This document shows positions 3,060 to 50,575 of a stretch of DNA of 64,000 nt, piece by piece. The DNA is taken from the NCBI GenBank assembly GCA_043721915.1, contig JAYSPV010000112.1, positions 6,386-70,385 of the forward strand, written 5' to 3'. The stretch is from Ilumatobacteraceae bacterium (GTDB taxonomy: Bacteria > Actinomycetota > Acidimicrobiia > Acidimicrobiales > Ilumatobacteraceae). Every line of letters starts with the position of its first letter. The first letter of the stretch is position 1. The notes beneath the pieces are model-generated. The model was not told where the DNA came from, made no database searches, and saw only the letters and a list, made by a program, of their open reading frames with translations. Made by a program: the position numbers and the translations under genes.

Positions 3060-3072
3060 CGCTTGTTCCCTC

Positions 3073-5334: not shown

Positions 5335-5338
5335 TGCC

Positions 5339-5641: not shown

Positions 5642-5644
5642 GCG

Positions 5645-8908: not shown

Positions 8909-8909
8909 C

Positions 8910-10131: not shown

Positions 10132-10137
10132 ATGTGG

Positions 10138-10503: not shown

Positions 10504-10526
10504 CGGGCACGACGCTACTACGCCGT

Positions 10527-29921: not shown

Positions 29922-30238
29922 CCCTTCAACTCGGCCATGTCGTCGGTGGTGGCATTGGGCTTGCGGCGCAGGATGGCGACCACGATGCCCAAGCCCACGA
30001 CCACTTCAGCAGCGGCCACGACCATCACGAAGAACACCGTCGTCTGCCCGCCGATGTCGCCCAACCGCCGGGCCAGCGCCACGAAGGTGAGGTTGACCGC
30101 GTTCAGCATCAGCTCGATGCACATGAACAGCACCAACGGGTTGCGGCGCACCATCACACCCACGACGCCGATGGAGAACAGCAGCGCAGCCAGCAGCAGG
30201 TACCACGTGGTGGTCACCTGCCAGATCGAGGCGATCAT
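29918..30238 (-). CDS. nuoK: NADH-quinone oxidoreductase subunit K (operon 2)
   Basis: 106-aa, 3-TM ORF with [18 protein letters not shown]...[19 protein letters not shown]. Confidence 0.9.
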
Positions 30239-31445: not shown

Positions 31446-32677
31446 CAGAACATCGCCCCCTCTCGTTCACGGTTGCGGGCACTCACCTTGGAAGCCAGAC
31501 GCAGGAGCCCCGCGCCAGCCAGCATCACGAGCAGGCCGATGACACCGGCGACGATGCGCTCCGGCCGCGACCAACCCTTGTCGCTGCCCACCCGGAACAC
31601 GGCGATGAGCATGAACCAGCCCAGCGACAGCGGGATCAGCAGCTTCCAGCCGAGGTTCATCAGCTGGTCGTAGCGCATACGAGGCAGCGTCGCACGGAAC
31701 CATACGTACACGTACAGGAAGACGAGCACCTTCGCCAGCAACCAGACGGTGCCACTGAACGGCCCGAGGAACGACAGCACGTTGGCCAGCCGGCCATCGC
31801 CGAGGCGCAGCGGCTGCGGGCCGCCGAAGAACAACGTGACGATCACGCCGCTCATCGTGATCGTGTTCATGAACTCGGCCAGGAAGAACAGGGCGAACCG
31901 GATGCTGGAGTACTCGGTGTTGAAGCCGCCGACGAGCTCTTGTTCGGCCTCCACCAGATCGAAGGGGGGCCGGTTGAGCTCTGCGGTGGCGGCGATCAGG
32001 AAGATCACGAACGGCAAGACGCCGGTGGCCACCACATGCCAGCGGGTGAAACTGGTCTGCGAGGTGACGATGCCGTTGGTGCTGAGGGTGCCGGCGATGA
32101 GGATCACCGTCGCGAGGCTGAGGCCGAGTGCCGCCTCGTAGCTGACCATCTGAGCCGAGGCCCGGACAGAGCCGAGCAGCGGGTACTTCGAGCCCGAGCT
32201 CCAACCGGCGAGCATGATGCCGTACACGGCGACGCTGGACAACGCCAGCAACAACAGCACACCGACGGGCGGGTCGGCGAGCTGCAGCTTGGTTGCCTTG
32301 CCCAACAAGCTGACGGTGCCGTCCTTGCCGTTGCTGAAATCGCCGCCGAGCGGGATCACACTCCAGACCAGGAACGCCGGCACGAATGCCAGGTACGGCG
32401 CCAGCTTGAACACGAACCGGTTGCTCTTGTCGGGGATCAGATCTTCCTTGAAGAACAGCTTGATGCCGTCGGCGAGCGTCTGCAGCAGGCCCTTCGGGCC
32501 GGCCTTGTTCGGGCCGACGCGGTTCTGCATGTAGGAGATGACCTTGCGCTCGAACCACACCATCAACATGGTGCCGACGAGGCCGACGACGAAGACCACC
32601 AGGACCTTGATCAACACGACCAGGAACGCAGTGCTGAAGGTGGTGATCCCGTCGAGCAGTGGGTCGAGTGCAATCAT
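31445..32677 (-). CDS. nuoH: NADH-quinone oxidoreductase subunit H (operon 2)
   Basis: [37 protein letters not shown] and [26 protein letters not shown] motifs. Confidence 0.92.
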
Positions 32678-36446: not shown

Positions 36447-37057
36447 TTCGCTGCCTCCGGTGCGGGCATCCAGGCCGGCTGGGCCGGCGCGTCGGGTGAT
36501 ACCGCGCCCGCGGCCTTGTCGGCGGGGATCTGCTGGCGCACGCGGGCGAGCGTGCCGTGCGGCGGGATCTCACCAGCGAGGCGACCAGCGGCCAGATCGT
36601 CGATCAGCTGATCGAACGAGGCTGTGGTCATCCGGTGGCAGTGGCGATAGTTGACCTGCATGTTCGGCGCTTCGGTGCACGCTGCCTGGCACTCGGCATG
36701 CTCCAGCGTGAACAGCCCGTCGGCGGTTGTGCCGCCGGCCTTCACACCCAGGCGCTCCTCGGCGTGGTGCATCAGCTCGTCGGCGCCCAGCAGCTGGCAA
36801 CTCATCGTCCCGCAGATGTTGACCAGGTACTTTCCGACCGGCTCGAACTTGAACATCTCGTAGAACGTGGCCGTGCCCAGGATCTCCGCGGAGGTGGCGC
36901 CGACCAGCTCGGCGACATGAGCGATCGCCTCGTTGGTGACGTAACCGTTCTGCTGCTGCGAGAGGTGCAGCAGCGGAATGGCTGCCGAGCGCGCCTTCGG
37001 GTAGCGCCCGATGATCTCCTTGGCCAGGATCACGTTGGCTTCGTTGAGGCGGCTCAT
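36443..37057 (-). CDS. nuoE: NADH-quinone oxidoreductase subunit E (operon 2)
   Basis: MSRLNEANVILAKEIIGRYPKARSAAIPLLHLSQQQNGYV with the 2Fe-2S cysteines in VNICGTMSCQLLG ... ECQAACTEAP. ATG 37057 overlaps the nuoD2 stop. Confidence 0.9.
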   Translation of the reverse strand: MSRLNEANVILAKEIIGRYPKARSAAIPLLHLSQQQNGYVTNEAIAHVAELVGATSAEILGTATFYEMFKFEPVGKYLVNICGTMSCQLLGADELMHHAEERLGVKAGGTTADGLFTLEHAECQAACTEAPNMQVNYRHCHRMTTASFDQLIDDLAAGRLAGEIPPHGTLARVRQQIPADKAAGAVSPDAPAQPAWMPAPEAAK

Positions 37058-38403
37058 CGGTCCACCTCGCCGAGCACGGGGTCGACCGACGAGATGACGG
37101 CGACGGCGTCGGCGACGAGGCCCCCGCGCATCATGTGCGGCAGGCATTGGACGTTGACGAACGATGGCGCACGCACGTGCATCCGGTACGGCGTGGCCGA
37201 ACCATCGCTGGCGATGTAGCAGCCGATCTCGCCACGCGGGCTCTCGATGGCCACGTAGACCTCGCCCTCGGGCACCTTGAAGCCCTCGGTGAAGATCTTG
37301 AAGTGGTGGATGAGCGCTTCCATGCTCTCGTCGATGCGAGCGCGCGGCGGCGGTGTGACCTTCTTGTTCTGGATGCGGTAGTCGCCACCAGGCATCCGAT
37401 CGAGGATCTGGTGCACGATGCGGATGCTCTCGCGGATCTCGTGGAAGCGGATGGCGTACCGATCGAAGGCGTCTCCGTAACTGCCGACGATGACGTCGAA
37501 CTCGACCTCGTCGTAGTGGAGGTAGGGCTGATCGCGACGGAGATCCCACTCGACGCCCGTGCTGCGCAGGATGGGGCCGGTGGCGCCCAGGGCTATCGCC
37601 TCGGCCTGCGTGATCACACCCACACCCTGCAGACGGTCGCGCCAGATCGGCTGACCGGTCATCAGGATGTCGTACTCCTCGAGCCGGGGCGGGATCATCT
37701 CCAGCAGGTGCAATACGTCGTCGCGCCAGCCGGCGGGCAGATCCGCGGCGACACCGCCGGGGCGGATGAAGTTGTGGTTCATCCGCAGGCCGGTGACCTT
37801 CTGAAAGAAGCGCAGCACTTCCTCACGCTCGCGCCAGCCGTAGATCATCATGCTGACGGCACCGAGATCCATGCCGTTGGTGGCCATGAACAACAGGTGC
37901 GATGACATCCGGTTGAGTTCGCTGAGCAGCATGCGCATCCAGACCGCACGCTCGGGGATGTCGCCGTCGATGCCGAGCAGCTTCTCGGTCGCCATGCTGA
38001 ACACGAGCTCGTTGTTCAGCGGGCTGAGGTAGTCCATGCGGGTGACGTTGGTGCCGCCCTGCATGAAGGTGAGCTGCTCGCCCTGCTTCTCCATCCCGGT
38101 GTGCAGGTAGCCGATGATCGGCTTGCAGCGCAGCACGGTTTCGCCCTGCAGCTCGAGCATCAGGCGCAGCACGCCATGGGTGCTGGGATGCTGCGGCCCC
38201 ATGTTGATGATCATGGTCTGATCTTCGGAGGGGTCGACGGGCAGGTCACCCAGCTTGGCGGCATCCGCCTCGCTCATCCGCAGGACTGCGCCGACTTCGC
38301 GCAGCAGCTCGCGAGCCGTCAGCTCGCTACGCGGCTTGAGGCCCTGCTCGGGCTCGTTGCCCTGACGGATGGTCTCGACGATGTTGTGATCGGTGGCGGT
38401 CAT
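37054..38403 (-). CDS. nuoD: NADH-quinone oxidoreductase subunit D (operon 2)
   Basis: MIINMGPQHPSTHGVLRLMLELQGETV and the C-terminal VISSVDPVLGEVDR. The start MTATDHNIV is at 38403. The upstream part of the tracked 655-aa ORF is shadow. Confidence 0.92.
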   Translation of the reverse strand: MTATDHNIVETIRQGNEPEQGLKPRSELTARELLREVGAVLRMSEADAAKLGDLPVDPSEDQTMIINMGPQHPSTHGVLRLMLELQGETVLRCKPIIGYLHTGMEKQGEQLTFMQGGTNVTRMDYLSPLNNELVFSMATEKLLGIDGDIPERAVWMRMLLSELNRMSSHLLFMATNGMDLGAVSMMIYGWREREEVLRFFQKVTGLRMNHNFIRPGGVAADLPAGWRDDVLHLLEMIPPRLEEYDILMTGQPIWRDRLQGVGVITQAEAIALGATGPILRSTGVEWDLRRDQPYLHYDEVEFDVIVGSYGDAFDRYAIRFHEIRESIRIVHQILDRMPGGDYRIQNKKVTPPPRARIDESMEALIHHFKIFTEGFKVPEGEVYVAIESPRGEIGCYIASDGSATPYRMHVRAPSFVNVQCLPHMMRGGLVADAVAVISSVDPVLGEVDR

Positions 38404-38930
38404 TGTGTGCCACTCCTTGCAGCGAAGTTGCCGCTGAACTGCACCGGGATGCAACCGACGTCGTAGTCCTTGCGCAACGGGTGGCCCTCCCAATCCTCTG
38501 GCATCAGGATGCGGGTGAGGTCGGGGTGGTCGTTGAAGACGATGCCGAACATGTCGTACACCTCGCGCTCCATCGCCTCGGTACCCGGATACATGTCGAA
38601 CAGCGTGGCGATCGTGGGGTCGGTGGCGGGCACCTGGACACGCACACGGATGCGTTCGCGCCGCTCCAACGACAACAGGTTGACGACGATCTCGAACCGT
38701 TCGGCAGCGATGCCCGCGGGTAGTATCCGCCCGGGATGCGTGAGGTAGTCGACTGCGGTGAGATCGACACACATCGCGTACGTGTCGTCGAGCAGGGCGC
38801 GTACCGTCTTCGTGTACTCGGATCGGCTGGGATGCAGCACCCGCTGGCCTCGGCTGTCGCTGAGCGGGACACCGTACGCACTGGGCGGCGGTTCGGGCGC
38901 GGCGACCTGTTGCTCGGGAGTGTCGGACAT
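38400..38930 (-). CDS. nuoC: NADH-quinone oxidoreductase subunit C (operon 2)
   Basis: [43 protein letters not shown] signature. The start MSDTPEQQV is at 38930. Confidence 0.88.
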   Translation of the reverse strand: MSDTPEQQVAAPEPPPSAYGVPLSDSRGQRVLHPSRSEYTKTVRALLDDTYAMCVDLTAVDYLTHPGRILPAGIAAERFEIVVNLLSLERRERIRVRVQVPATDPTIATLFDMYPGTEAMEREVYDMFGIVFNDHPDLTRILMPEDWEGHPLRKDYDVGCIPVQFSGNFAARSGTQ

Positions 38931-38932
38931 GG

Positions 38933-39544
38933 TTAGCGGCTTCCCAGGATGACCGGCACCGGCTGTGCACCGGCCGGGATCTCGGTGACGTGCAACCCGG
39001 CACCGGCGCCGGTGGCAGCACGGCGCTTGAGCAGCTCGCCGTCTTCGATCTTCTGGTGCAACGTCTCGATCGCGTGGATCAGCGTCTCGGGGGTCGGTGG
39101 GCACCCCGGTGCGTACACGTCCACGGGCACCACCTGATCGACGCCTTGCACGATCGCGTAGTTGTTGAACATGCCACCGCTGCTGGCACACACGCCCATG
39201 CTGATGACCCACTTCGGTTCCATCATCTGGTCGTAGACCTGGCGCAACACCGGCGCCATCTTCTGGCTGACCCGCCCGGCGACGATCATGATGTCGGCCT
39301 GGCGCGGCGAGGCGCGGAAGACCTCCATGCCGAAGCGGCTGATGTCGTAGTGCGCCGCGCCGGTGGCCATCATCTCGATCGCACAGCAGGCGAGCCCGAA
39401 CGAGGCCGGCCACGAGCTGCGGCTCCGCGCCCAACCGACCAGATCTTCCAGCCTGGCTGTGATCGCGTTGTGAGGGATCGAGCCGATGCCCTCGGGCAGG
39501 ATGTTCTTGAGCTTGTCGACGGCGATCTCAGTGGACGACTTCAT
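38933..39544 (-). CDS. nuoB: NADH-quinone oxidoreductase subunit B (operon 2)
   Basis: [22 protein letters not shown] and APGCPPTPE motifs. The start MKSSTEIAV at 39544 overlaps the nuoA2 stop (ATGA). Confidence 0.92.
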
Positions 39545-40002
39545 GCTGCAGAGTCCTGTGGGCGACCTTCGAGACCGACACGGCGGATGGTGCTGGTGAC
39601 GGTGCGGCCCGGTGACAATGCGGACTCGAGACGCCGCTGCTTCGCGACCGGCCCCCACTCGAGCGCACCACGCGCGACGACGTACACGAATGCGGCGAAG
39701 AAGACCACGCTGAAGGCGATCATCTCCCACAGTGCGTACGAGCCGAGGAACTGGCGATCCACGGCGAACGGGTAGATGAAGATCAGTTCGATGTCGAACA
39801 TGATGAACAGCATCGCGACGACGTAGAACGTGACCGGGAATCGCTCGGGTGGCTCGCGGCTGGGGACGATGCCGCACTCGTACGGCGCCTCCTTCGCAGC
39901 CGACGGGCGCCGAGGCGCGAGCAAGCCGGATGCAAAGAAGCTCAACGCACCGAACAGTGCGGCCAAGACCAGCAATGCGACGATCGGCAGGTATTGGCCC
40001 AT
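39541..40002 (-). CDS. nuoA: NADH-quinone oxidoreductase subunit A (operon 2)
   Basis: [41 protein letters not shown] is typical NuoA. Confidence 0.9.
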
Positions 40003-40005: not shown

Positions 40006-40869
40006 TCAGACCTTCGCCGGAAGTGCCTTGGCCGACCGATTCACTGCGACCCGTCGATCGCGGGTGTGGAGCAGCCAGCACAGCAGCAGGAAGATGATCA
40101 ACGACGAGATACAGATGATGGCGGCCGGCACACGTTTCGCACCCAGGTCGCGGATCATGTAGACGTATTCATGCGACCTCGACGTGTCGATGACCGCCCG
40201 CGCAGGTGCACGACCGGGCTCGGACCGTTGCGGCATCAGCGGCGCGATCTCGACCACTGCGTAGTGCGGCGCGTGGAAGAACGCGAGGAAATCGATCCTG
40301 CCATCCCAGAACTGCGGGCTGCGCTCGCCGCCCTTCTCATAGACAGAGACCACCGTGAACCCGCCGGCGGCGAACGCCTCCGATTCCTCGACGTACACGC
40401 TGCCGGCCGAACCGGCCTGTTGGAACGACGGCAACGCCGAGTTGAGCTGCTTCCAGCCGTTGTAGCTCAACAGCCCGCGCACGCTCTCGGCGTCGGCGAT
40501 TGCATCGTCGGTCATCTCGAAGTTCACATCGAGGATACCGACATCGTTGAGTCGCGACGGCTCACGGATGATCGTCTTGCCGGCAACCGGCTGCCACGAC
40601 GGATCGGGCCCGAGCAGGCCCTTGCCGTACGTCCACCACACCGCGCCCATGATGAACATCCACCCTGCGAGAGCGGTGAGGACGACGAGGAACCCGAGGC
40701 GGGCACCCATGTTGGTACCGAGGATCAGATAGATGCTGCCGCACAAGACGGCCACCGCGATGATCACGATCAGCGTGCCACGCAGCTCCCATTCCCAGGG
40801 CCCGATGGCCGTCTTCGTCACGTTGCCGAGAATGCCGGCGGCTGCCGACGTGAGTGCTGCATGCATCAC
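40006..40869 (-). CDS. Hypothetical membrane protein encoded between the di-haem cytochrome c gene and nuoA2
   Basis: 287-aa ORF. It has two N-terminal hydrophobic helices ([41 protein letters not shown]), a central soluble domain of about 170 aa, and a C-terminal helix ([19 protein letters not shown]). The start overlaps the cytochrome c stop (ATGA), and the stop lies 3 nt before the nuoA2 ATG. I recognise no family. Confidence 0.7.
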
Positions 40870-41942
40870 AGGCTCCGCACGTATTCGACGACGGCTTTGA
40901 TCTGCTCATCGGTGAGCAGATGCCCGAACCCGGGCATCCGGCCCGAACCCTGGCCCTGCACGCCGTACTTGACGCCGTTCTTGGAACCGGCCTTGATGAA
41001 GTTGATCATGTCCTGCTCACTCGGGAAGTGGGAGTTGGTGGCGCCGCCGGTGAGGTTCCAGCCGAACGCGCCCTGCGCCGTCACGCCGGGGTCGCCGTAG
41101 CTCCAGCCGGGAGTGTGACAGCGGGCGCAGCTGTAGGCGCCATACGACAGATCCGAGTTGAACAGGGCTTCGCCCTCGCTGGCACCGGGGTTGGTCGCCA
41201 TGTAGTCGTCGACAGCGCGCTGGATGTCGTCCTTCGTGGTTTGCGGCAGCGTGCCACCGTCACACACGTACGGGTCGGCCTTGTTGACGAACGAATCGTC
41301 GGTGAGGCAGCCCTCGGGCTGGATCTGGATGCTCTTCAGGTAGACGAGCAGGGTTTCGATGTTCTGGGCCGTCATCGGGCCGCCACCTGGTGCACCCCAC
41401 GCGGACATCGGCGAGAACGGCCGGCCGTAGTTGAGGATGAACCGAACCTCTTCCTGGCTGAAGCGGTAGAAGACGGTGTTCAGCGCCGGTGCGTACCAGC
41501 TGACCGCGGTGACTTCGCCCGTCTTCACGTCGGTGATCGCGTAGGGGGCGACGTTGCCGAGACCGCCCAGACCGCCATGGCAGCCTGCGCAGTTGAAACC
41601 ACCGTTGGCGGTGGTTTGGAACAGCTGCTCACCCCACCAACGGAAACGCTCCTGTTCGCCGCTGACAGCGCCGGCCTGTCGGCTGGGCTCGTACGCCCAG
41701 TAGAGCGGCAGTCCGATCACCATCGTCAGCAGCAAGAGCACGCCGAAGACCTGCAAGCGTTCCAACCGCGAGCCCTCGAGGGTCTCGTCGTCGTAGTACG
41801 CCTTGCGGTTGGGCGCCATCTCGACTTCGGAGCCCAGCTCGCTGCGCGCCTTGCCCGAGCTGAGGAAGTAGTAGGTGACCCAGCCGATGACGACGACGGC
41901 GAGGATGACCCATGCCACGGCAACTGTGTTGAGCGCGATCAT
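40866..41942 (-). CDS. qcrC: Membrane-anchored di-haem cytochrome c (QcrC-like)
   Basis: Two CxxCH motifs (CAGCH, CARCH), two N-terminal TM helices, and a C-terminal GSGRMPGFG Met-ligand-like motif. Confidence 0.88.
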   Translation of the reverse strand: MIALNTVAVAWVILAVVVIGWVTYYFLSSGKARSELGSEVEMAPNRKAYYDDETLEGSRLERLQVFGVLLLLTMVIGLPLYWAYEPSRQAGAVSGEQERFRWWGEQLFQTTANGGFNCAGCHGGLGGLGNVAPYAITDVKTGEVTAVSWYAPALNTVFYRFSQEEVRFILNYGRPFSPMSAWGAPGGGPMTAQNIETLLVYLKSIQIQPEGCLTDDSFVNKADPYVCDGGTLPQTTKDDIQRAVDDYMATNPGASEGEALFNSDLSYGAYSCARCHTPGWSYGDPGVTAQGAFGWNLTGGATNSHFPSEQDMINFIKAGSKNGVKYGVQGQGSGRMPGFGHLLTDEQIKAVVEYVRSL

Positions 41943-42820
41943 ATGCAGTGTGGCCCTTCCGCCTCTTGACCAGTGGTGTTGGTGCCGATGGCGGCGCCGA
42001 CCTTGACGGCCGATGTGTCGATGACGACATCACCGGAACCCGAGACCGTGACAGCGAAGTGATCCATCCCTCGAGGGGCAGGACCTGCCTTCTTCTCCCC
42101 GGCGCGGTTGTACTGAGAACCGTGGCAGGGGCATTCGAACCATTGGCTGCTCTTGCACTCGGGAACCCGGCAACCCAGGTGCGGGCACTTCTGGTAGATC
42201 GCAACGACGCCACTCTCCATGCCGCCGATGAGCGTGCTGTACTCCTTGACGCCCTTGGCCTTGGGGAGCGCTTCGGGTGGGTAGACCGTCAGATACGAGC
42301 GCGCGCTGGAGCTGTACAGGAAACCGCCGTTGCTGCGAATGGTAGCCAGCACCTCGGTGAGCTTGCCGATGGTCACCTTGCCGCCGAACACCGGCACCGT
42401 GGTGGGCCACAGGAAGGCAACGAACCCGGCAGCGGCGAACGATGCAAGGCCAGCTGTCATCAGCACGACAGTGGAACGGTTGAGGAACTGGCGACGGTTG
42501 ACGCCGATCTCGTCACGGTCCGGCGGAATCCAGATGCTCGGAGTCATGTCGGGCGCCGGCACGAGTCCCTGGGCGCGCTCGGTGGTTGCGGCACGTTCGA
42601 CATCCCTGCCGGTGGGGGCACTCGGGAGATCGAGGTCTGCGTCGCGATCGCGACGCTTGGTTTCGCGGCTCAGTGCGCCGGCACCGCGGACATCGCTCTT
42701 GCGAGCGGCGGTGAGCAGCACGACGGCCGCCAACACGGCGACCACGACAAGCGCAATGGCAATGATGAGTGCAGGAGTCATGAAAGGGGATGCCTCACAG
42801 TTCGAAGAAGAGACCGTCAC
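41939..42820 (-). CDS. qcrA: Rieske [2Fe-2S] subunit of the cytochrome bc/b6c-type complex
   Basis: CPHLGCRV ... CPCHGSQY Rieske boxes. An internal twin-arginine motif (VNRRQFLN) follows an N-terminal TM helix. The start may be ATG 42781 (MTPALII) rather than 42820. Confidence 0.9.
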   Translation of the reverse strand: MTVSSSNCEASPFMTPALIIAIALVVVAVLAAVVLLTAARKSDVRGAGALSRETKRRDRDADLDLPSAPTGRDVERAATTERAQGLVPAPDMTPSIWIPPDRDEIGVNRRQFLNRSTVVLMTAGLASFAAAGFVAFLWPTTVPVFGGKVTIGKLTEVLATIRSNGGFLYSSSARSYLTVYPPEALPKAKGVKEYSTLIGGMESGVVAIYQKCPHLGCRVPECKSSQWFECPCHGSQYNRAGEKKAGPAPRGMDHFAVTVSGSGDVVIDTSAVKVGAAIGTNTTGQEAEGPHCI

Positions 42821-43565
42821 GCCACGGGAGCGTGAAGTTGAAGCCGGGACCGCGGAAGAACGAGCCGATGATGACGAGCACGGCCCAGAACATCATGTGC
42901 ACCGTCATCAACGACGTCGCGAACTTGCGATCCTCCGGTTTGTTGGAAGGGTTCTTGTCGATGAACGGAGCGAGGATCAGCACGATCATGCCCACGCCGG
43001 GGATGGTGACGCCGGCGATCATCGGGTGGAACATGGTGAGCAGTTCCTGCAGGCCGAGGAAGTACCACGGGGCCTTCGACGGGTTCGGCGTCTTGTTGAT
43101 GTTCGCTTCCTGCAGCAGCGGCGCATTCACGAAGATCGAGAAGAAGAACGTGAACGACATGCACAGCAGGGCGGCCACGAACTCGGCGGCGAGCAGGTGC
43201 GGCCACGTGTGCACCTTGTCGACCGGCGAGGCCTTCACATCCTGGATGCTGCCGCTCTTGACGACGGTGAGCAGCCGTTGGGTGTGGCCGCCAGGGCCAG
43301 CGCCCAGCGGCACGCCGCCACCCGCGGGCGCGGCGGCGACGACGCTGGCCACCTTCTCCATCACGGCAACGCCGCCACCACCTTCTTCGGCCTTGCGGGC
43401 CTTGCTGCGTTCGAGCAGGTGCGCGGGGATGCGCGGGTCCGCTGCCGGCTCGTTGCTGGCCGTGGCAGCGGCGGCAGCCTCGGGCGACGACGCGCCGCTC
43501 TCGGCTGCGGCCTTGTCGCGCGCTGCCTGAGCCCGCTTGAGGAGATGTTCAGGGATTTCGGTCAT
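42795..43565 (-). CDS. Cytochrome b6c/b6f subunit IV-like protein (C-terminal half of cytochrome b) with a roughly 110-aa low-complexity N-terminal extension
   Basis: The core WPHLLAAEFVAALLCMSF...KAPWYFLGLQELL...IAGVTIPGVGMIVLILAPFID matches PetD/subunit IV topology. The extension carries two copies of an IPxHLLxRSxAR motif. Confidence 0.85.
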   Translation of the reverse strand: MTEIPEHLLKRAQAARDKAAAESGASSPEAAAAATASNEPAADPRIPAHLLERSKARKAEEGGGGVAVMEKVASVVAAAPAGGGVPLGAGPGGHTQRLLTVVKSGSIQDVKASPVDKVHTWPHLLAAEFVAALLCMSFTFFFSIFVNAPLLQEANINKTPNPSKAPWYFLGLQELLTMFHPMIAGVTIPGVGMIVLILAPFIDKNPSNKPEDRKFATSLMTVHMMFWAVLVIIGSFFRGPGFNFTLPWRDGLFFEL

Positions 43566-43580: not shown

Positions 43581-44366
43581 CTACAACGGACCCGAGATGC
43601 CGCCGTCTTTGCGGACACGCCAGAAGTGGATGGCCATGAAGATGACGATCACGAACGGCAGCATCAGCACGTGCAACACGTACCACCGCAGCAGCGTGTC
43701 GCCACCGATCTCCTTGCCACCGAGGAGCACGAATCGCACCTTCTCGCCCAGCACCGGGGTGTAGCCCATCATGTTGGTACCCACCGTGACGGCCCACAGC
43801 GCCAGCTGGTCCCACGGGAGCAGGTAGCCGGTGAACGACAGCAGCAGGGTGAGCATCAGCAACACGACGCCGATGACCCAGTTGAACTCGCGCGGCGGCT
43901 TGTACGCGCCGTGGTAAAAGACGCGTGCCATGTGCAGGAACACGCTCAGCACCATCAGGTGCGCACCCCATCGGTGCATGTTGCGCACAAGTAAGCCGAA
44001 CGTCACCGATGTCTGCAGGTTCGAGATGTCGCTCCATGCCTGCACGTCGGTGGGGCGGTAGAAGAACATCAGGAAAATGCCCGTCACCGTCAGCAGGATG
44101 AACAGGAAGAAGCTGAGGCCACCGAGGCACAGGGTGTAGCTGACCTTCACCGCGTGGCGCTTCACCTTCACCGGGTGCAGGTGGTACAGCACCGAGTTCA
44201 TGATCACGTAGCTGCGGTTGCGCGGGCTGTCGGTGTAGCCCTTGCGGAAGATGCTGCCGGGCCGGAAGATGCTGCTCCAGGCCTGGCTGCCCTGCACGCC
44301 GTCGACGCCTTTGGTGAGGCGCTGCTTGACAGTGGGGCGCGGTGTCTCGTCGAGAATTTTTGCCAT
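43581..44366 (-). CDS. qcrB: Cytochrome b6-like subunit (N-terminal four-helix haem-binding half of cytochrome b)
   Basis: Contains LYHLHPVKV. The haem-ligand histidine pairs are in RNMHRWGAHLMVLSVFLHMARVF and LRWYVLHVLMLPFVIVIFMAIHFWRVRKDG. Confidence 0.9.
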   Translation of the reverse strand: MAKILDETPRPTVKQRLTKGVDGVQGSQAWSSIFRPGSIFRKGYTDSPRNRSYVIMNSVLYHLHPVKVKRHAVKVSYTLCLGGLSFFLFILLTVTGIFLMFFYRPTDVQAWSDISNLQTSVTFGLLVRNMHRWGAHLMVLSVFLHMARVFYHGAYKPPREFNWVIGVVLLMLTLLLSFTGYLLPWDQLALWAVTVGTNMMGYTPVLGEKVRFVLLGGKEIGGDTLLRWYVLHVLMLPFVIVIFMAIHFWRVRKDGGISGPL

Positions 44367-44382: not shown

Positions 44383-44796
44383 TCAGAGCCTCATGCCGTA
44401 GGCATAGCCGTGGCTGTTGGTACGGGTGTGCGAGTCGCCGGCTGCCGCCGGTGCCCCTACTTTGCCCATGATGATCACGCCCGTCGGGCAGCGATCGACA
44501 CACAGTTGGCACCGTGTGCAGATGTCGTCGTCGATGATGAACAGCACCTTGTCGCTCGGGTCGAGCCCGGGCTGCTCGGTGTTGCTGGCCTCGACGATGG
44601 CGTCGGTGGACACCATGTGGATGCACTTCCACGGACAGATGTCGACACAGCCCTCGCACATGATGCACTCGGTCTGGTCGATGTGGATGAACTGCTTGGG
44701 CTTGATCGCCTTCGACAAGTAGTCCGCGTCGACCTCGACGAGTTGGTACTCGTCGGTGTACGGCATCATCGGTGGGTTTGCGTCGGTCTTCGCCAT
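44383..44796 (-). CDS. 2x[4Fe-4S] dicluster ferredoxin-domain protein, encoded second in the Rieske/cyt b operon
   Basis: CIMCEGCVDICP and CTRCQLCVDRCP motifs. The 137-aa protein has no TM segment. Its start lies 3 nt after the upstream stop, and its stop lies 16 nt before the cytochrome b6 start. Confidence 0.85.
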   Translation of the reverse strand: MAKTDANPPMMPYTDEYQLVEVDADYLSKAIKPKQFIHIDQTECIMCEGCVDICPWKCIHMVSTDAIVEASNTEQPGLDPSDKVLFIIDDDICTRCQLCVDRCPTGVIIMGKVGAPAAAGDSHTRTNSHGYAYGMRL

Positions 44797-44799
44797 CGG

Positions 44800-45246
44800 T
44801 CAGCTCTTCTTCACCAGTGGGCGCCCGAAGGTGCTGGTGGCCAGTTCGGTGCCGGGCTTGCCGTCACCGCGCTTCTGCCACAAGCTCCAGAGGAAGATCA
44901 TGATGCCGAAGTACCACAGGTGGATGACGATGACCACGATGTCGCGGATGGCTTCGTACGACATCGTGAACGGGAAGGGACCACCGAGCGCCTTCGGCTT
45001 GAGGAGGTCGAACGGCCCATAGATGATGTTGCTCTTGTCCCACTTGAGATCGACGTCGGCGTGAGCGATGAACTTGTCGGGAACGATGCCGAACGCGACG
45101 AACATCAGGCCGAAGACGTACACGGAGGCGAGCATCGCCTCACCCCAGGACGTGGGCGTGCCCTTCGGGCGGCGCTTGGCGTACGGGATGACGACGAGCG
45201 CTCCGATGGTGGAGATGATGAACGAGAACAGGAATGCTTGATTCAT
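44800..45246 (-). CDS. Hypothetical 3-TM membrane protein, first gene of the Rieske/cyt b operon
   Basis: MNQAFLFSFIISTIGALVVIPYA, AMLASVYVFGLMFVAFGIV and IVVIVIHLWYFGIMIFLWSLW are hydrophobic helices. The start is taken at ATG 45246 inside tracked ORF 44800..45339. Confidence 0.65.
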   Translation of the reverse strand: MNQAFLFSFIISTIGALVVIPYAKRRPKGTPTSWGEAMLASVYVFGLMFVAFGIVPDKFIAHADVDLKWDKSNIIYGPFDLLKPKALGGPFPFTMSYEAIRDIVVIVIHLWYFGIMIFLWSLWQKRGDGKPGTELATSTFGRPLVKKS

Positions 45247-45524
45247 CCCGGGCCACTTCAGAACGTTCCAATCAAATGCGATCAGCACCTGCGCTGCCCT
45301 TCCTCGTGAACTGCTGCACAAACTGTAGCCACGCCACACCGGGTGATTGCCAGTCCGTCTCTAGATCGTGATGAACGGCACACCTCAGGGCACCGGCTCA
45401 TGGTCGCCGGTCTACCACGCGGCGAGCCGCACTTCCCTGGTTGTGAACTCGTGCATCCAAATTTTCTGGCCACGCGTGAGGTGGATTTCCTGCAGCGAGG
45501 CATCGGCCGTCTATCGTTCACTGC
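45247..45524. promoter_or_regulatory. Divergent intergenic region between the Rieske/cyt b-nuo transcription unit and the mono-haem cytochrome c gene
   Basis: This 278-bp non-coding gap separates divergent respiratory genes and is visibly less GC-rich (for example CCAAATTTTCTGG). I cannot place promoters precisely. Confidence 0.4.
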
Positions 45525-46319
45525 GTGACCGAGATTCCTGAGCACCTGCTGAAGCGCAGCCAGGCACGCAAAGCCGGCGGCGATGCCGCTGCCACTACCA
45601 ACACTCCTGCTGTCGTTGCATCGGCTACGCCCGCCGTGGCCACGCCGAAGGCCGCTGTCGTGCCCGCCGGCCCACCGCCGCCCAAGCCCGACATCCCCGT
45701 GGTGGCCGCTTACAAGGCGCGCAAGAAGATCCCGATGTGGGCGATGGTCACGTTGAGCATCCTGCCGCTGTGGCTGTTCATGTACGTGGTCGCGCTGCGC
45801 CCGGTCGCCGCCAAGGCCAGCGGCCCGCTCGCCGTCGGCGCCGCGGTGTACAACAAGAACTGTCAGGGGTGCCACATGCCGGGTGGTGCCGGCGTCGAGG
45901 GCGGCGCCTACAAGTTCACCGATGGCTCGGCGATGCTCACCTTCCCGCACATCGAGGACCAGCTTCGCTGGGTCTCATTGGGCACCGACGAGTACCAGAA
46001 GGCCGGCATCACCATCGCTGGCGACCCGAACCGAGAGGGCGGGCCACACATCGTCGGCAGCAATCAGAAGATGCCCCCGCGCGGCGGACAGGATTACACG
46101 GACGCCGAGATTCTTGGCGCTGTGTGCGAAGAGCGTTACGCACTCGGCGGCGTGCCCGAGGAGGGCGAAGAGTGGGAGCTGTGGTGTGCCGAGGATGGCG
46201 CCGCATGGATCGCGCTCGAGACCAACGCTGCCACCTTCGACAACATTCACGAGGTCCTCGCCGACAAGGGCATCATGGAGATCGGCAGTGTGCCGGTCGC
46301 CGGCACCACCGCCGACTGA
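45525..46319 (+). CDS. Membrane-anchored mono-haem class I cytochrome c
   Basis: One CQGCH motif and a QKMPPRGG Met-ligand region. One TM helix (MWAMVTLSILPLWLFMYVVAL) follows a Pro/Ala linker. The GTG start gives the N-terminus MTEIPEHLLKRSQARK. Confidence 0.85.
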   Translation: MTEIPEHLLKRSQARKAGGDAAATTNTPAVVASATPAVATPKAAVVPAGPPPPKPDIPVVAAYKARKKIPMWAMVTLSILPLWLFMYVVALRPVAAKASGPLAVGAAVYNKNCQGCHMPGGAGVEGGAYKFTDGSAMLTFPHIEDQLRWVSLGTDEYQKAGITIAGDPNREGGPHIVGSNQKMPPRGGQDYTDAEILGAVCEERYALGGVPEEGEEWELWCAEDGAAWIALETNAATFDNIHEVLADKGIMEIGSVPVAGTTAD

Positions 46320-47475: not shown

Positions 47476-47512
47476 GTGGCCGCTTCCGTGAGGAAGCGGC
47501 CACACTTGTTTT
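47476..47512 (+). terminator. Rho-independent terminator
   Basis: GTGGCCGCTTCC, loop GTGA, GGAAGCGGCCAC (perfect 12-bp stem), followed by ACTTGTTTTCC. Confidence 0.8.
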
Positions 47513-47514
47513 CC

Positions 47515-48798
47515 GTGAGCGACGAAGCCTCCACCGCCGGATCCACGAACGGTCCCGTCACCACAGAGGTGCTCGTGATCGGCGGGGGCCCGGCAGGTGC
47601 TGCGGCCGGCTACTGGCTGGCGAGCCTGGGCCACGACGTCACGATCGTGGAGCGAAAGACCTTCCCGCGCGACAAGACCTGCGGCGACGGTCTCACCCCG
47701 CGTGCCGTCCACCAGCTCGAGCAGATGGGCCTCGCCGAACCACTCGCCGCGTTCCACCGCCACGACGGGCTGCGCGTCACCGGCATGGGCCGCGAGATGG
47801 AGCTGCAGTGGCCCAGTCATTCCGTCTACCCGCAACACGGCTACGTGGTCCGCCGGCGCGAGCTCGACCAGATGGTGGCCGAGAACGCCCAGCGCGCGGG
47901 CGCCCGTCTGCTGCTCGGCCACGAGGCAATCTCACCGATCGTCGAACGCGGCTTCGTGCGTGGGGCGACGGTGTCCGTGATCGGCACCGCCACGACCCGC
48001 GATATCCATGCCAGGTACGTCGTGGTCGCCGACGGCGCCAACAGTCGATTCGGTCGTGCAGTCGGCACGTTCCGAACACCGGAGTGGCCACGCGGCGCCG
48101 CCATTCGCTCGTACTGGAAAACGCCTCGCCACAACGAACCGTTGATCGAATCCGCACTCGATGTGAAGGATCGCAACGGTCACTCGATGCCCGGCTACGG
48201 CTGGATCTTCCCGGTCGGCGACGGCACCGTCAACATCGGTGTCGGTGTGCTCTCCACCTTTCGCGATTTCAAGAGCGTCAACACCAGTCGGCTGCTCGAC
48301 GCATACGCGCATCAGGTGGCGGAGCGATGGGAGATCGACCCGACTGCTCCGGAGCACGCGCCCGTGCGCGGCCGCATTCCGATGGGTGGCTCGGTGGGCC
48401 CCAATGCCGGCCCCAGTTTCCTGGTGGTGGGCGATGCTGCGGGAAGCGCCAACCCGTTCAGCGGTGAGGGAATCGACTACGCGTACGAGACCGCCCGAAT
48501 GGCCGCTCTGGTGTTGCACGAAGCACTCGCCACCAACGATCCGTCGGTACTGCAGCAGTATCCCCGCCAGATCGAGGACGAGTACGGGGAGTACTTCAAG
48601 GTTGCCCGTCTCTTTGCTCGCGTCATCGGCAGGCCCGCCGTGATGCGTGAGCTCACGCGCACCGGCATGCACAGTCGCACGCTGATGGAGTGGATGTTGC
48701 GGATCTCGGCCAACCTGCTGCGAGAGGACGAGCAAGGCCCCGCCGAACTGGCCTACCGGGCCGCGACGAAGATCGTCAAGCTCGCGCCCAACGCGTAG
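47515..48798 (+). CDS. FAD-dependent geranylgeranyl-reductase-family oxidoreductase (possible menaquinone side-chain reductase, MenJ-like)
   Basis: VLVIGGGPAGAAAGYWLASLGHDVTIVERKTFPRDKTCGDGLTPRAV (dinucleotide-binding fold plus the family motif) and a later VVGDAAGSANPFSGEGI. The start is moved to GTG 47515 because the tracked start (47476) lies inside the upstream terminator hairpin. Confidence 0.8.
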   Translation: MSDEASTAGSTNGPVTTEVLVIGGGPAGAAAGYWLASLGHDVTIVERKTFPRDKTCGDGLTPRAVHQLEQMGLAEPLAAFHRHDGLRVTGMGREMELQWPSHSVYPQHGYVVRRRELDQMVAENAQRAGARLLLGHEAISPIVERGFVRGATVSVIGTATTRDIHARYVVVADGANSRFGRAVGTFRTPEWPRGAAIRSYWKTPRHNEPLIESALDVKDRNGHSMPGYGWIFPVGDGTVNIGVGVLSTFRDFKSVNTSRLLDAYAHQVAERWEIDPTAPEHAPVRGRIPMGGSVGPNAGPSFLVVGDAAGSANPFSGEGIDYAYETARMAALVLHEALATNDPSVLQQYPRQIEDEYGEYFKVARLFARVIGRPAVMRELTRTGMHSRTLMEWMLRISANLLREDEQGPAELAYRAATKIVKLAPNA

Positions 48799-49594: not shown

Positions 49595-50575
49595 CTACAG
49601 AGTGGCGAGGAGGCTGGCGGGGGCGGCACGCAGTACGTCGCTGGCGGCGGACGACGGCAGCCGATCACAAGCGGCCTCGGCACGCGCCGACCACTCGCGA
49701 GCGACCGACATCGCGGCGGCGACGCCCTCGTTGGAACGCACGATTCCCAACGCCTTCTCCTGCTCGACACCGACCAGCGGCTTGCCCAACAACGACAGCA
49801 GCTCGACGGCGGGCACCCCGCCCGCCTGCAGCGTGCGCAGCACCGGAAGTGTGTACACACCCTCGACCATGTCGTGGCCGGCGGGCTTGCCCAGCTGCTC
49901 GTCGGTGGCGGTGATGTCGAGCAGGTCGTCGGCAATCTGGAAGACCATCCCGAACGACTCGCCGTATTCGGTGAGCGCATCGATGATGGCGCGATCGAGA
50001 TCTGCGACCAGGCCGCCGATGCGCGCAGCCGTGGCGAACAACGAAGCCGTCTTACCACTGATGCTGCTGAGGTAGCTGGCCTCGGGGCGAGCCGCGTTGT
50101 ACGTGTGGCGCAGTTCCTCGATCTGGCCTTCGCACAGGCGACCGATCGTGCGGGCCAGCAGCCCCGCAACCTCGGTGCCCAAGGAGGCGGCGATCTCCGA
50201 AGCCCGCGACAGCAGGTAGTCGCCAGCGAGGATCGCTTGCAGGTTGCCCCACTTGGCGTTCACCGTGTCGACCCCGCGGCGCATGTTGGCCTCGTCCATC
50301 ACGTCGTCGTGGTAGAGCGACCCGGTCTGCACCAGCTCGCAGGCGATGCCACCCTGCACCGATCGTTCGTGGAGGTCGGCGCCGGCAGCACCTGCAACCT
50401 GCGCCGCGACCACGGTGAGGATCGGGCGAAGGCGCTTGCCGCCGGCGACGATCAGGTGCGACGCGATGTCGTTGAGGTAGGGATCCGACGTGTGCACGGA
50501 CTCCTTCAGCGCAGCTTCGATCCGCGCGAGATCGGCGGCATGGCTGGGCAGCGCGAACAGCGGAGCAGACGACAC
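49595..50575 (-). CDS. Polyprenyl diphosphate synthase (long-chain trans-prenyltransferase for the menaquinone side chain)
   Basis: First DDxxD-type motif LYHDDVMDE, second motif FQIADDLLD, plus GKRLRP. Confidence 0.88.
   Translation of the reverse strand: MSSAPLFALPSHAADLARIEAALKESVHTSDPYLNDIASHLIVAGGKRLRPILTVVAAQVAGAAGADLHERSVQGGIACELVQTGSLYHDDVMDEANMRRGVDTVNAKWGNLQAILAGDYLLSRASEIAASLGTEVAGLLARTIGRLCEGQIEELRHTYNAARPEASYLSSISGKTASLFATAARIGGLVADLDRAIIDALTEYGESFGMVFQIADDLLDITATDEQLGKPAGHDMVEGVYTLPVLRTLQAGGVPAVELLSLLGKPLVGVEQEKALGIVRSNEGVAAAMSVAREWSARAEAACDRLPSSAASDVLRAAPASLLATL

Follow-up and report, generated by a model that had tools for sequence, protein, structure and literature searches.

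Few energy converters are understood as well as the Rieske/cytochrome b complexes. Discussion of additional cytoplasmic redox modules on them has to date been confined almost entirely to anammox bacteria, a group that is very difficult to cultivate. In Kuenenia stuttgartiensis, one subunit of the complexes encoded by Kuste4569-4574 and Kustd1480-1485 is a cytoplasmic NAD(P)-oxidoreductase (Kartal et al.; PMC12954380). In AF3 models of these complexes, an n-side haem lies opposite residues 511 and 550 of the subunits of about 600 aa, and a chain of FeS clusters continues to FAD; the function is itself a proposal based on models (PMC12954380). Both residues belong to the C-terminal part of these subunits. 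Haem cn has long been proposed as the entry for ferredoxin electrons in cyclic flow, and a cytochrome b with a cytoplasmic FeS partner has been proposed by Dibrova et al. as the architecture of the bc-complex ancestor (PMC5600118). The APWY clade, defined along with its CxGG motif (PMC4122944) and corresponding to subfamily G of Dibrova et al., already has Ilumatobacter on its list with a split cytochrome b. The Ext cluster of Geobacter encodes no ferredoxin; its genes include those for multihaem cytochromes, a porin and a rhodanese (PMC5877670). In the PDWF-FeS clade, cytochrome b is fused to a 4Fe-4S domain plus MvhD, or to ferredoxin/flavin oxidoreductase domains (Kao & Hunte 2014).

Here we analysed a 64,000-nucleotide stretch of DNA from an Ilumatobacteraceae bacterium (the window), in which the genes for a ferredoxin-type protein (Fd) and a small membrane protein (TM3) stand in front of those of a b6f-like complex III. 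This arrangement suggests that the cytoplasmic side of the complex bears a previously undescribed port for electrons. Our full-text literature search found neither a description nor a solved structure of such a module; an earlier mention is possible. The cluster has seven genes, all on the minus strand, in the order TM3, Fd, cytochrome b6 (b6), a subunit IV homologue (SUIV), a Rieske protein, a dihaem cytochrome c and a membrane protein. The 3-nt spacer between TM3 and Fd (TGA-CCG-ATG) is in frame, and the Fd stop codon lies 16 nt before the b6 ATG at 44366, both distances being those given in the preliminary description of this DNA. That description had also called the pair the first genes of the cluster, and on their 5' side we find only a divergent intergenic region of about 240 nt and then a cytochrome c gene on the opposite strand. 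A promoter scan gave 0 promoter-like sites, and terminator-like sites occurred at chance level.

Fd (44383-44796, minus strand) is a cytoplasmic protein of 137 aa, recognized from its open reading frame and its Fer4 dicluster Pfam matches. It carries the motifs C44-x2-C47-x2-C50-x3-C54-P and C93-x2-C96-x2-C99-x3-C103-P (residues 44-55 and 93-104), scores above the gathering cut-offs of seven Pfam families (Fer4_10, Fer4, Fer4_21, Fer4_7, Fer4_16, Fer4_9 and Fer4_2) and has no membrane segment, the highest 19-residue Kyte-Doolittle mean being 1.12. The coordinates, the length, the two CxxCxxCxxxCP motifs and the lack of a transmembrane segment are as first described. Neither a twin-arginine nor a Sec-like N-terminus was seen on reading the sequence. 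From the motifs and the cut-off scores, Fd can be assigned to the bacterial-type 2x[4Fe-4S] dicluster proteins of the Pfam Fer4 clan, and two cubane clusters are predicted; none of the 8 cluster cysteines varies among 67 family members, whose identity goes down to 23%. Beyond the cluster motifs, Fd is conserved in an N-terminal segment (DY.L.EVD..YL..A.KPKQ). It has an insert that separates the two clusters and an additional invariant cysteine, Cys58 (CPWKC), and minimal ferredoxins are without these conserved N-terminal and inter-cluster segments. Its core is acidic, with a net charge of about -10, and its C-terminal tail is disordered in isolation and not kept between clades. In the AF2 model, the core (pLDDT 75-87) has the strands and helices expected of a (beta-alpha-beta)2 ferredoxin fold. 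Foldseek matched this model best to FwdF polyferredoxin units, PscB and NdhI, and also to dicluster units of oxalate oxidoreductase (probability 1.0); the TM-scores reached only about 0.4 because of the extensions of Fd, and no bc or b6f subunit was among the best matches.

The GC3 of the Fd gene is 0.88, typical of genuine genes in the window. Its constraint is like that of a core subunit: Fd evolves as slowly as b6 and SUIV, the median dN against the window being 0.12 for Fd, 0.09 for b6, 0.13 for SUIV, 0.35 for the Rieske protein, 0.34 for the dihaem cytochrome c and 0.32 for TM3. Databases list the relatives of Fd under generic names such as "ferredoxin" or "4Fe-4S dicluster domain-containing protein." Some members carry a JGI name that would make them NuoI/NdhI/HycF, which we rejected at 40.6 bits against a cut-off of 113 for TIGR01971 (NuoI) and 34 against 302 for ndhI; the JGI name PreA was likewise rejected, its score falling far under the curated cut-off. 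Both complex I clusters in the window have a NuoI-sized dicluster gene or space for one.

TM3 (44800-45288, minus strand) is probably a protein of 162 aa that starts at the GTG at 45288, while the ATG at 45246 would give 148 aa. The longer form is more likely because most homologues are called at 162 aa, because the stretch LKWPG upstream of the ATG at 45246 is conserved at the protein level in TM3 homologues and because the Shine-Dalgarno-like GAGGAAGGG lies 5' of the GTG at 45288. Of what was first said about this protein, the three hydrophobic helices hold and the length of 148 aa probably does not. TM3 is predicted to have its N-terminus out and its C-terminus in, and its cytoplasmic tail is basic and conserved (TSTFGRPLVKK); an AF2 model shows three helices at a pLDDT of 75. 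TM3 has no match in Pfam or NCBIfam and no structural analogue in the PDB (best E = 2); its 853 homologues are all unnamed or "hypothetical," and those with a named host are all from Actinomycetota. It was present in all 80 genome loci, and the small transmembrane proteins found 5' of Fd in divergent clades are homologous to it (hhalign probability 98.5%, E 2e-15).

The remaining genes give the cluster the features of a b6f-type (split) Rieske/cytochrome b complex, namely a four-helix b6 with its histidines, a separate SUIV, Rieske boxes and a c-type cytochrome. Cytochrome b6 (43581-44366; 261 aa, four helices; Pfam Cytochrome_B, 8e-47) aligns with cyanobacterial and plant b6 at E 3e-48, with the four haem histidines kept and Cys80 on the column of b6 Cys35. 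This candidate haem cn cysteine lies in the motif TLCLGG (T[LF]CLGG in 76 of 76 homologues), and covalent attachment of the haem is predicted from the alignment. The protein begins with a basic, conserved extension of about 54 aa (W.S.FRPGS.FRKGY..S.RNR, then LYHLHP; charge +10), which has no counterpart in the NCBIfam ExtP profile or in cyanobacterial b6 and is present in every Fd-linked b6 inspected. The ExtP profile itself scores 310 bits against a cut-off of 290 and begins only at residue 55. Even so, the Ext name should not be transferred to the window b6. We rejected identity with the Geobacter selenite/tellurite operon extHIJKLMNOPQS: ExtP passed, but ExtQ matched the window SUIV only weakly (50 against a cut-off of 150), and the porin, rhodanese and multihaem genes are missing. 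ExtM was also rejected as a counterpart of Fd, ExtM and ExtN being multihaem cytochromes c.

SUIV (42795-43565; 256 aa; Pfam Cytochrom_B_C) has the Qo motif APWY, found as SKAPWY in the window and in 74 of 74 homologues, and an N-terminal cytoplasmic extension of about 110 aa with two IPxHLLxR[AS] motifs. By this Qo motif and the split of cytochrome b, the window protein can be placed in the APWY clade (Kao & Hunte 2014; PMC4122944). The Rieske [2Fe-2S] protein (41939-42820; Pfam Rieske; CPHLGC...CPCHGS) has a Tat-like motif, RRQFL, N-terminal to its membrane helix. It is followed by the membrane-anchored dihaem cytochrome c (40866-41942; 358 aa; CAGCH and CARCH), which matches Pfam Cytochrome_CBB3/Cytochrom_C over two stretches and has two CxxCH motifs in 62 of 63 homologues. 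The last gene encodes a membrane protein of 287 aa (40006-40869) with no match in Pfam or NCBIfam; it lies 3' of the cytochrome c in 60 genome loci. Its position in divergent clades is taken by a protein of 166-341 aa that carries no annotation, and in two or three of these clades tblastn shows a weak similarity. No Pyr_redox, FAD or NAD domain was found in the seven cluster genes with Pfam and NCBIfam. Divergent to the cluster, in the window and in 67 of 80 loci, is the gene for a membrane-anchored monohaem cytochrome c (45525-46319, plus strand; 264 aa; Pfam Cytochrom_C; CQGCH). This cytochrome, whose cytoplasmic N-terminus bears the motif IPEHLLKRS, as in SUIV, may accept electrons from the complex or act as its partner. 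At the other end, after a 3-nt gap and outside the conserved cluster, lies NuoA (39541-40002, minus strand; Pfam Oxidored_q4), the first gene of a 14-subunit-type nuo operon.

The preliminary description had proposed asking whether homologues of the pair are always linked to split b6/SUIV genes. Among species-representative loci, each seeded from Fd or TM3 as every linkage locus was, the order TM3-Fd-b6-SUIV-Rieske-cytochrome c-membrane protein occurs in 79 of 80, and the remaining one ends at a contig edge. The same order recurs in five divergent clades, whose Fd is 27-58% identical and whose other flanking genes differ, and two TM3-seeded loci show the same linkage, so the proposed test came out in favor of the pair belonging with these genes. 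Counting loci that extend far enough, we find the seven-gene order in about 100 loci of six Fd clades, down to 27% Fd identity; the gap from TM3 to Fd is at most 6 nt in 57 of 78 loci. The sole exception to the linkage is one family member, the orphan paralogue P0265 (L102), which is not beside a cytochrome b. Across deep divergence, the genes for Fd and TM3 are inseparable from those for b6, SUIV, the Rieske protein and cytochrome c, and a relative is found in the genomes of at least 596 species. Natural TM3/Fd fusions were considered as Rosetta-stone evidence and rejected: The long matches, among them P0267, P0310, P0330, P0336 and P0340, come from frameshifted gene calls that contain garbled stretches. 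The fragment P0249 has the only clean-looking TM3-Fd read-through, a single case that could be a sequencing error.

Relatives outside the family were searched among 1.84 billion representatives. The best such matches include P0376, P0379 and P0390, GltD-like proteins in which Fer4_20 and Pyr_redox_2 domains are joined to a C-terminal dicluster. Residues 1-112 of Fd align with this dicluster at 36% identity, the extra cysteine included (hhalign 99.8%, E 8e-28); since any two dicluster families score high in hhalign, the homology rests mainly on the database ranking and the shared context. P0376 is followed by a Rieske gene and P0379 lies between b6/SUIV and multihaem cytochromes, so that 2 of the 3 GltD-like proteins examined are in anammox-type Rieske/cytochrome b clusters; around the third (L108), no Rieske/cytochrome b genes were seen. 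The analogy with anammox complexes drawn at the outset is therefore closer than a loose resemblance, the nearest outside relatives of Fd being the C-terminal diclusters of such proteins. We nonetheless rejected membership in the anammox-type NAD(P)-linked complexes, because the cluster encodes no GltD-like FAD/NAD(P) subunit, only a homologue of its C-terminal dicluster.

Based on our findings, we think it reasonably probable that Fd is a dedicated n-side 2x[4Fe-4S] subunit of a b6f-like menaquinol:cytochrome c oxidoreductase, with TM3 as its membrane partner. Our data suggest that the host is the Rieske/cytochrome b complex found in Acidimicrobiia and in several further lineages of Actinomycetota. 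From the invariant gene order, the core-like constraint and the charge complementarity, we infer that both proteins would be stoichiometric subunits. The acidic Fd (core charge -10) would dock on a basic cytoplasmic face made up of the b6 N-terminal extension (+10) and the loop and tail of TM3 (tail +4). Basic loops are expected anyway in membrane proteins from the positive-inside rule. The two Fd clusters may serve as a wire of about two electron-tunnelling steps, spanning from the n-side haems (bH/cn, possibly with an extra interfacial haem) to the cytoplasmic surface; such a wire would therefore give the complex an electron port, for which canonical bc1, b6f and actinobacterial bcc complexes have no equivalent. 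Since the cluster encodes no flavin or NAD(P) module along with Fd, the port would serve a separate soluble partner. As to direction, we lean slightly toward low-potential electrons, from reduced ferredoxin or similar, flowing downhill into the Qi site and reducing menaquinone. In the reverse alternative, bifurcation at the Qo site would drive electrons onto a low-potential acceptor, which is the proposal made for anammox.

A bolder version of our proposal, which we offer tentatively and would not expect to hold in full, is that a ferredoxin port at the haem cn/Qi side is built into the main complex III of a large, abundant and apparently aerobic group of Actinomycetota, the aerobic respiration being read from gene neighbourhoods. 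The complex could then be a hard-wired form of the long-sought "ferredoxin:quinone reductase" that takes low-potential electrons into the Q cycle via haem cn, or it could gain low-potential reductant from menaquinol by Qo-site bifurcation while cytochrome c/O2 takes the other electron. Either way, it would be a minimal, flavin-less form of the module proposed for anammox, and it could also be a survivor of the "cytochrome b plus cytoplasmic FeS dehydrogenase" ancestor of Dibrova and Mulkidjanian.

Other roles for Fd and TM3 have to be weighed against that of a subunit and its partner. The two could be assembly factors, for example an n-side reductant or scaffold for haem cn attachment to b6 Cys80, or could act in maturation of the complex. 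The pair always occurs with an invariant haem cn cysteine, and bc/b6f complexes offer no known family and no solved analogue for either protein. Haem-attachment factors are often encoded beside their substrate, and we know of no machinery for haem cn attachment outside oxygenic phototrophs. Fd, however, is as constrained as b6 and SUIV and more so than the Rieske protein and cytochrome c, which is unusual for a maturation factor; the place of TM3 and Fd at the front of the cluster, with spacers of 3-16 nt, suggests equimolar expression; and the nearest relatives of Fd are electron-wire domains of redox subunits. Geobacter-type APWY complexes also have the CxGG cysteine (PMC4122944) in a cluster without a ferredoxin gene (PMC5877670). 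Taking these points together, we consider an assembly role unlikely. We would give a slightly smaller chance to Fd being an ordinary, freely diffusing ferredoxin for another enzyme, merely co-transcribed with complex III and not docking on b6. Such a role would suit a small, acidic, soluble protein to which databases give just "ferredoxin"-type names, and one paralogue does lie away from cytochrome b; but the order TM3-Fd-b6 is strict from 88% to 27% Fd identity despite wholly changed flanks, and Fd has conserved N-terminal and inter-cluster segments that minimal ferredoxins do not. The b6 N-terminal extension, found with Fd in all cases inspected and not in the ExtP profile or cyanobacterial b6, also argues for docking, as does the fact that the nearest relatives of Fd are domains tethered to Rieske/cytochrome b complexes.

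Fd might also be bound to the complex with its clusters carrying no catalytic current, as a structural cap, a redox or oxygen sensor or an electron buffer. As a buffer it would be a safety valve that drains over-reduced n-side haems, limiting semiquinone and reactive oxygen in aerobes. This is consistent with a complex that otherwise resembles a complete housekeeping menaquinol:cytochrome c reductase, with the cytochrome oxidase or cytochrome c maturation genes that adjoin it in every divergent clade and with the lack of a partner enzyme or flavin module encoded alongside Fd. We hold it to be about as improbable as a freely diffusing Fd, since both cluster motifs are wholly canonical and invariant and the homologous GltD-like domains are placed as through-wires in published models (PMC12954380), although a buffer or sensor is hard to distinguish from a port by sequence alone. 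The preliminary description had further raised the idea that Fd links complex III electrically to the neighbouring complex I, and this has lost nearly all its appeal. In the window nuoA follows the cluster after 3 nt, and NuoA comes next, usually within 10 nt, in 57 of 57 loci that reach that far; all of these belong to the Ilumatobacteraceae-like clade, whereas the divergent clades retain TM3-Fd-b6 with cytochrome oxidase or cytochrome c maturation genes at the nuo position and no NuoA there. Complex I, moreover, passes its electrons to quinone, and we know of no FeS-to-FeS hand-over from complex I to another complex. We therefore regard such coupling as highly improbable.

If Fd is indeed a subunit of this complex, the kind of module discussed for anammox bacteria occurs in minimal form in an apparent housekeeping complex III of Acidimicrobiia and related Actinomycetota. 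It would then be experimentally tractable, cultured Ilumatobacter being among the at least 596 species whose genomes have a relative. It would bear on the role of haem cn and on the feeding of the Qi site by ferredoxin (the cyclic-electron-flow/FQR question in photosynthesis), on the diversion of Qo-site bifurcation to low-potential acceptors and on the origin of bc complexes from cytochrome b-anchored dehydrogenases. Our results may also be of use in annotation, where Fd and TM3 now appear as "hypothetical," generic "ferredoxin," NuoI or PreA, and b6 can be misnamed "selenite/tellurite reduction ExtP."

Like the anammox Kuenenia complexes, the window cluster combines a b6-like four-helix cytochrome b, SUIV and a Rieske protein with an extra cytoplasmic FeS protein. 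The GltD-like plus dicluster architecture holds the closest outside relative of Fd, the proteins compared being P0376, P0379 and P0390 and not those of Kuenenia; a FwdF polyferredoxin-like structure is common to Fd and the anammox subunit (PMC12954380). Unlike that subunit, Fd is free-standing, with 137 aa and two clusters, is accompanied by a small transmembrane protein and has no Fer4_20/FAD/NAD(P) module. A plain dihaem cytochrome c takes the place of the multihaem or HAO-like cytochromes, and the hosts are Actinomycetota, in which cytochrome oxidase, cytochrome c maturation or nuo genes adjoin. Cyanobacterial and chloroplast b6f, the closest solved structures (E 3e-48; no solved homologous complex comes from the APWY clade), have the split b6/SUIV, and their four haem histidines and haem cn cysteine align with those of the window b6. 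They differ from the proposed complex in having no built-in n-side FeS subunit, and from the window proteins in having cytochrome f, PetG/L/M/N and a PEWY rather than an APWY Qo motif, and in lacking the b6 extension of about 54 aa. APWY and CxGG are shared with the APWY clade, or subfamily G, for example Geobacter ExtO/ExtP/ExtQ. The PDWF-FeS clade, likened here by description, also joins a bc-type cytochrome b with a non-Rieske FeS module, but there the module forms a single fused protein with a long cytochrome b that has another Qo motif, in Proteobacteria and Spirochaetes, whereas Fd is a separate protein with a dedicated transmembrane partner. The actinobacterial bcc complex QcrCAB of Mycobacterium and Corynebacterium is like the window complex in its phylum, its menaquinol substrate and its dihaem cytochrome c acceptor. 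QcrB, however, is a fused long cytochrome b, which the window b6 matches at 120 bits against a cut-off of 500. To our knowledge, QcrB has no haem cn cysteine and the bcc complex, as seen in solved supercomplexes, has no cytoplasmic-side FeS subunit. The cytochromes b of the SdhBC, NarHI, HdrDE and DsrMK modules are unrelated or distant and come with no Rieske protein or Qo site, and the FeS subunits beside them are from other families; even so, the proposed complex would share with these modules an FeS wire on the cytoplasmic face that exchanges electrons with b haems and quinone.

The 137-aa 2x[4Fe-4S] ferredoxin-type protein (Fd; 44383-44796) is encoded within seven closely spaced genes running on the minus strand from 45288 to 40006. 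It is preceded by a small three-helix membrane protein (TM3; 44800-45288 or 44800-45246, by start codon chosen) and followed on the same strand by cytochrome b6 (43581-44366), a subunit IV (SUIV) homologue (42795-43565), the Rieske protein (41939-42820), a dihaem cytochrome c (40866-41942) and a 287-aa membrane protein (40006-40869). Divergent from these, on the plus strand, lies the gene for a membrane-anchored monohaem cytochrome c (45525-46319). The spacers in the preliminary description are correct: the TM3/Fd junction reads TGA-CCG-ATG, and 16 nt separate Fd from b6. Its 148 aa for TM3 needs revision, as 162 aa is more likely: TM3 homologues are mostly annotated at this length, the additional N-terminal residues are conserved, and a good Shine-Dalgarno-like sequence lies upstream of the GTG at 45288. 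The TM3 stop and the Fd ATG are in one frame with a single codon between them (44794-44802). In one metagenomic fragment, P0249, TM3 reads through into Fd (…YGRPLARKGSGMARTDANPP…), either a natural fusion or a sequencing error; the remaining apparent fusions proved to be frameshift artefacts. Because nuoA, the first of the complex I (nuo) genes, begins 3 nt after the 287-aa membrane protein, the bc cluster and nuo operon make up an uninterrupted stretch (24881-45288, minus) that could be a single complex III and complex I transcription unit of about 20 kb.

Our comparison of gene neighbourhoods indicates that the Fd and TM3 genes are obligately linked to the cytochrome b cluster. Where close homologues of the two are named by taxon, they belong to Acidimicrobiia, chiefly Ilumatobacteraceae, or to unclassified Actinomycetota, and a few MAG records with an Fd relative bear other taxon names. 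With each species represented by one genome, at least 596 species encode an Fd relative, and the family is compact at 50% clustering (40 of 1.84 billion representatives below 1e-30, many of them fragments). Database names for Fd are all generic ("ferredoxin", "4Fe-4S dicluster domain-containing protein", NuoI/HycF, PreA), and the more specific of them, NuoI/HycF and PreA, failed the curated cut-offs. In the best 80 genome loci, a divergent cytochrome c is followed by TM3-Fd-b6-SUIV-Rieske-cytochrome c-membrane protein-nuoA wherever the contig permits; every one of the 80 has TM3, and 79 have b6, which is missing only at a contig end. Distant clades, in which Fd is 27-58% identical, have the order small TM protein-Fd-b6-SUIV-Rieske, then mostly cytochrome c and a membrane protein (P0483 in L081; P0309 in L083; P0298 in L084; P0354 in L086-L098, from soil metagenomes; P0542 in L103), within flanks wholly unlike those of the window: genes for aa3- or cbb3-type oxidases and for cytochrome c maturation, in place of nuo. 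The small TM proteins of these clades are beyond the reach of BLAST, yet profile comparison shows them to be homologous to TM3 across its second helix, loop, third helix and tail (98.5% probability, E 2e-15). Two loci retrieved with TM proteins as seeds have the same arrangement. The tie to split b6/SUIV genes, proposed earlier as a test, therefore holds: homologues scattered in unlinked contexts were looked for, and the only unlinked member among those examined is the singleton paralogue P0265 (L102:672-1085). This protein is 54% identical to Fd, has an altered, expanded first motif, CxxCx5CxxxCP (CIQCGAGYGCVDICP), and lies without an adjoining cytochrome b beside a 511-aa ORF lacking a Pfam match and a pyruvate dehydrogenase E1-like gene. 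As a separate observation, the cluster closes with a membrane protein of 166-341 aa without family assignment in the window (40006-40869), L081, L083, L084, L086 and L103; it is the fastest-evolving gene in the set and another candidate novel subunit.

Aligned with cyanobacterial and plant b6 of known structure (E 3e-48), the b6 of the window keeps the four haem-ligating His, and its Cys80 coincides with the haem cn cysteine. T[LF]CLGG occurs in 76/76 b6 homologues and APWY in 74/74 SUIV homologues, and this SUIV signature places the complex in the APWY clade of Kao & Hunte, who list Ilumatobacter with split cytochrome b (PMC4122944); membership of subfamily G of Dibrova et al. is likewise probable. 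Given the Rieske protein, the dihaem cytochrome c and oxidase genes nearby, the complex has the appearance of a complete menaquinol:cytochrome c reductase running in the forward direction, and menaquinone biosynthesis is reported in the Ilumatobacter genome paper. Beside the respiratory cluster lie a geranylgeranyl-reductase-like FAD protein (47476-48798, plus) and a polyprenyl diphosphate synthase (49595-50575, minus), neighbours also seen in L104, which probably serve synthesis or saturation of the menaquinone side chain. The b6 exceeds the NCBIfam cut-off for ExtP ("selenite/tellurite reduction operon b-type cytochrome ExtP"; 310 vs 290 bits), but the window holds no Ext operon genes, the Geobacter Ext cluster has no ferredoxin, and the ExtP profile starts only at residue 55 of b6; automatic annotation would probably give it this name wrongly. 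Residues 1 to ~54 form a strongly basic extension (W.S.FRPGS.FRKGY..S.RNR), which is conserved in every inspected b6 of Fd-linked clusters, whereas cyanobacterial b6 lacks it. The 64-kb window has three copies of the motif [IV]PxHLLxR[AS] (TEIPEHLLKRSQARK), at 43556 and 43430 (minus; SUIV residues 4 and 46) and at 45534 (plus; residue 4 of the divergent monohaem cytochrome c), always in predicted cytoplasmic N-terminal tails. SUIV homologues carry two copies in 49/74 cases and one in 17/74; the motif, not evident in divergent clades, looks like a common docking peptide for a putative cytoplasmic partner.

Two canonical CxxCxxCxxxCP motifs are present in Fd, which scores above the cut-offs of seven Fer4-type Pfam families. 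Since it has neither a hydrophobic segment (19-residue hydropathy maximum 1.12) nor an export signal, it should be cytoplasmic. Down to 23% identity, no substitution occurs at its eight cluster cysteines or at Cys58 (CPWxC), Asp52, Trp56 and the TRC within the second motif. Near-invariance is seen at Tyr17 and Asp23 and, in a ten-sequence alignment, at Lys32. Among close loci, median dN relative to the window is 0.09 for b6, 0.12 for Fd, 0.13 for SUIV, 0.32 for TM3, 0.34 for cytochrome c, 0.35 for Rieske and 0.45 for the last membrane protein, values of which the ranking alone is meaningful with dS near saturation. By this ranking beside b6 and SUIV, Fd evolves like the membrane core of the complex and unlike an accessory factor. 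In an AF2 model, the dicluster core is confident (pLDDT 75-87), a beta-hairpin is inserted between the two motifs, and residues 113-137 form a tail of low confidence; the model's best PDB matches are single FwdF polyferredoxin units, oxalate/pyruvate oxidoreductase domains, PscB and NdhI, with no bc/b6f complex subunit among them. TM3 is modelled as three helices, for which no structural analogue was found in the PDB.

Our central claim, that Fd is physically and electronically coupled to the complex, is one we infer from sequence. With a charge of -10 in its core, acidic Fd would dock on the basic cytoplasmic (n-side) face, to which the b6 extension (+10) and both the loop and the tail of TM3 (+4 each) contribute. 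Its two clusters would then join haem cn/bH to the cytoplasm, and, because no flavin module is encoded with Fd, this FeS wire would have to end at a surface open to a separate partner. We weakly prefer a direction in which low-potential electrons enter at the Qi site, which is thermodynamically downhill; by analogy with anammox, the reverse is possible, with bifurcation at Qo driving electrons to a low-potential acceptor. A second complex-I-like cluster (1452-10542, minus; NuoA-B-C-D-H-I-J-K-L-M) is distinct from the nuo operon at 24881-40002, which has NuoG, and leaves no space for NuoE/F/G between NuoD (7736-8965) and NuoH (about 6687-7700). Relatives of such NuoEFG-less enzymes elsewhere take ferredoxin or F420H2 as donor. 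Its gene content suggests an 11-subunit-type complex I with a donor other than NADH, for example one of these two, and hints at a low-potential pool feeding respiration.

Other roles must be weighed against such a docked FeS wire. Fd and TM3 could act in assembly, for haem cn, whose cysteine b6 retains; the constraint on Fd is that of a core subunit. Fd could also stay unbound in the cytoplasm, as its soluble sequence would permit, or, if bound, be non-catalytic or an electron buffer; its strict gene order speaks against the former, and its canonical, invariant cluster motifs against the latter. Finally, Fd might couple complex III to complex I, a link suggested in the preliminary description. 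The junction of the 287-aa protein with nuoA is indeed present in 57/57 same-clade loci reaching that far, but it is not kept in divergent clades, where no nuo genes lie beside the cluster, and this gene context disfavours such coupling.

The proposed n-side wire also has parallels among other Rieske/cytochrome b complexes. Extra cytoplasmic redox modules are known as genomic and modelling proposals, for example in anammox (PMC12954380), in the PDWF-FeS clade (PMC4122944) and, more generally, as the "large oxidoreductase" neighbours of subfamily G (PMC5600118). Full-text literature searches, which did not extend to the neighbourhood analysis of Dibrova et al. 2013, gave no account of an Actinomycetota complex III in which a minimal ferredoxin lacking flavin is paired with a small TM protein dedicated to it, and the PDB contains no comparable complex; we consider the finding to be of real interest for bioenergetics. 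In an exhaustive representative search, the first matches to Fd outside its family include, besides generic polyferredoxins, P0376, P0379 and P0390 (587-615 aa), together with fragments of the same sequence. These proteins combine Fer4_20 and Pyr_redox_2 (GltD-like, FAD/NAD(P)) with a C-terminal dicluster domain that matches Fd residues 1-112 at 36% identity, including the inter-cluster insert and the extra cysteine (profile comparison: 99.8% probability, E 8e-28). A Rieske gene directly follows P0376, and P0379 is flanked by a b6/SUIV pair and multihaem cytochromes, the architecture described for Kustd1480-1485 of Kuenenia stuttgartiensis; no Rieske/cytochrome b context was seen at P0390. Fd is thus homologous to FeS domains that n-side subunits of related complexes carry. 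[quoted passage not shown] As a side observation, LYHLHP in the window b6 (residues 60-65; 44166-44183) is invariant in all loci and also lies inside the ExtP profile, with His62/His64 on the cytoplasmic side, 16-18 residues ahead of the haem cn cysteine; that these are the counterpart of the Kuenenia ligands is only a lead. From the GltD-like dicluster homology, the gene contexts and the Kuenenia models, Fd is best seen as a free-standing counterpart of the membrane-proximal half of the anammox FeS wire.
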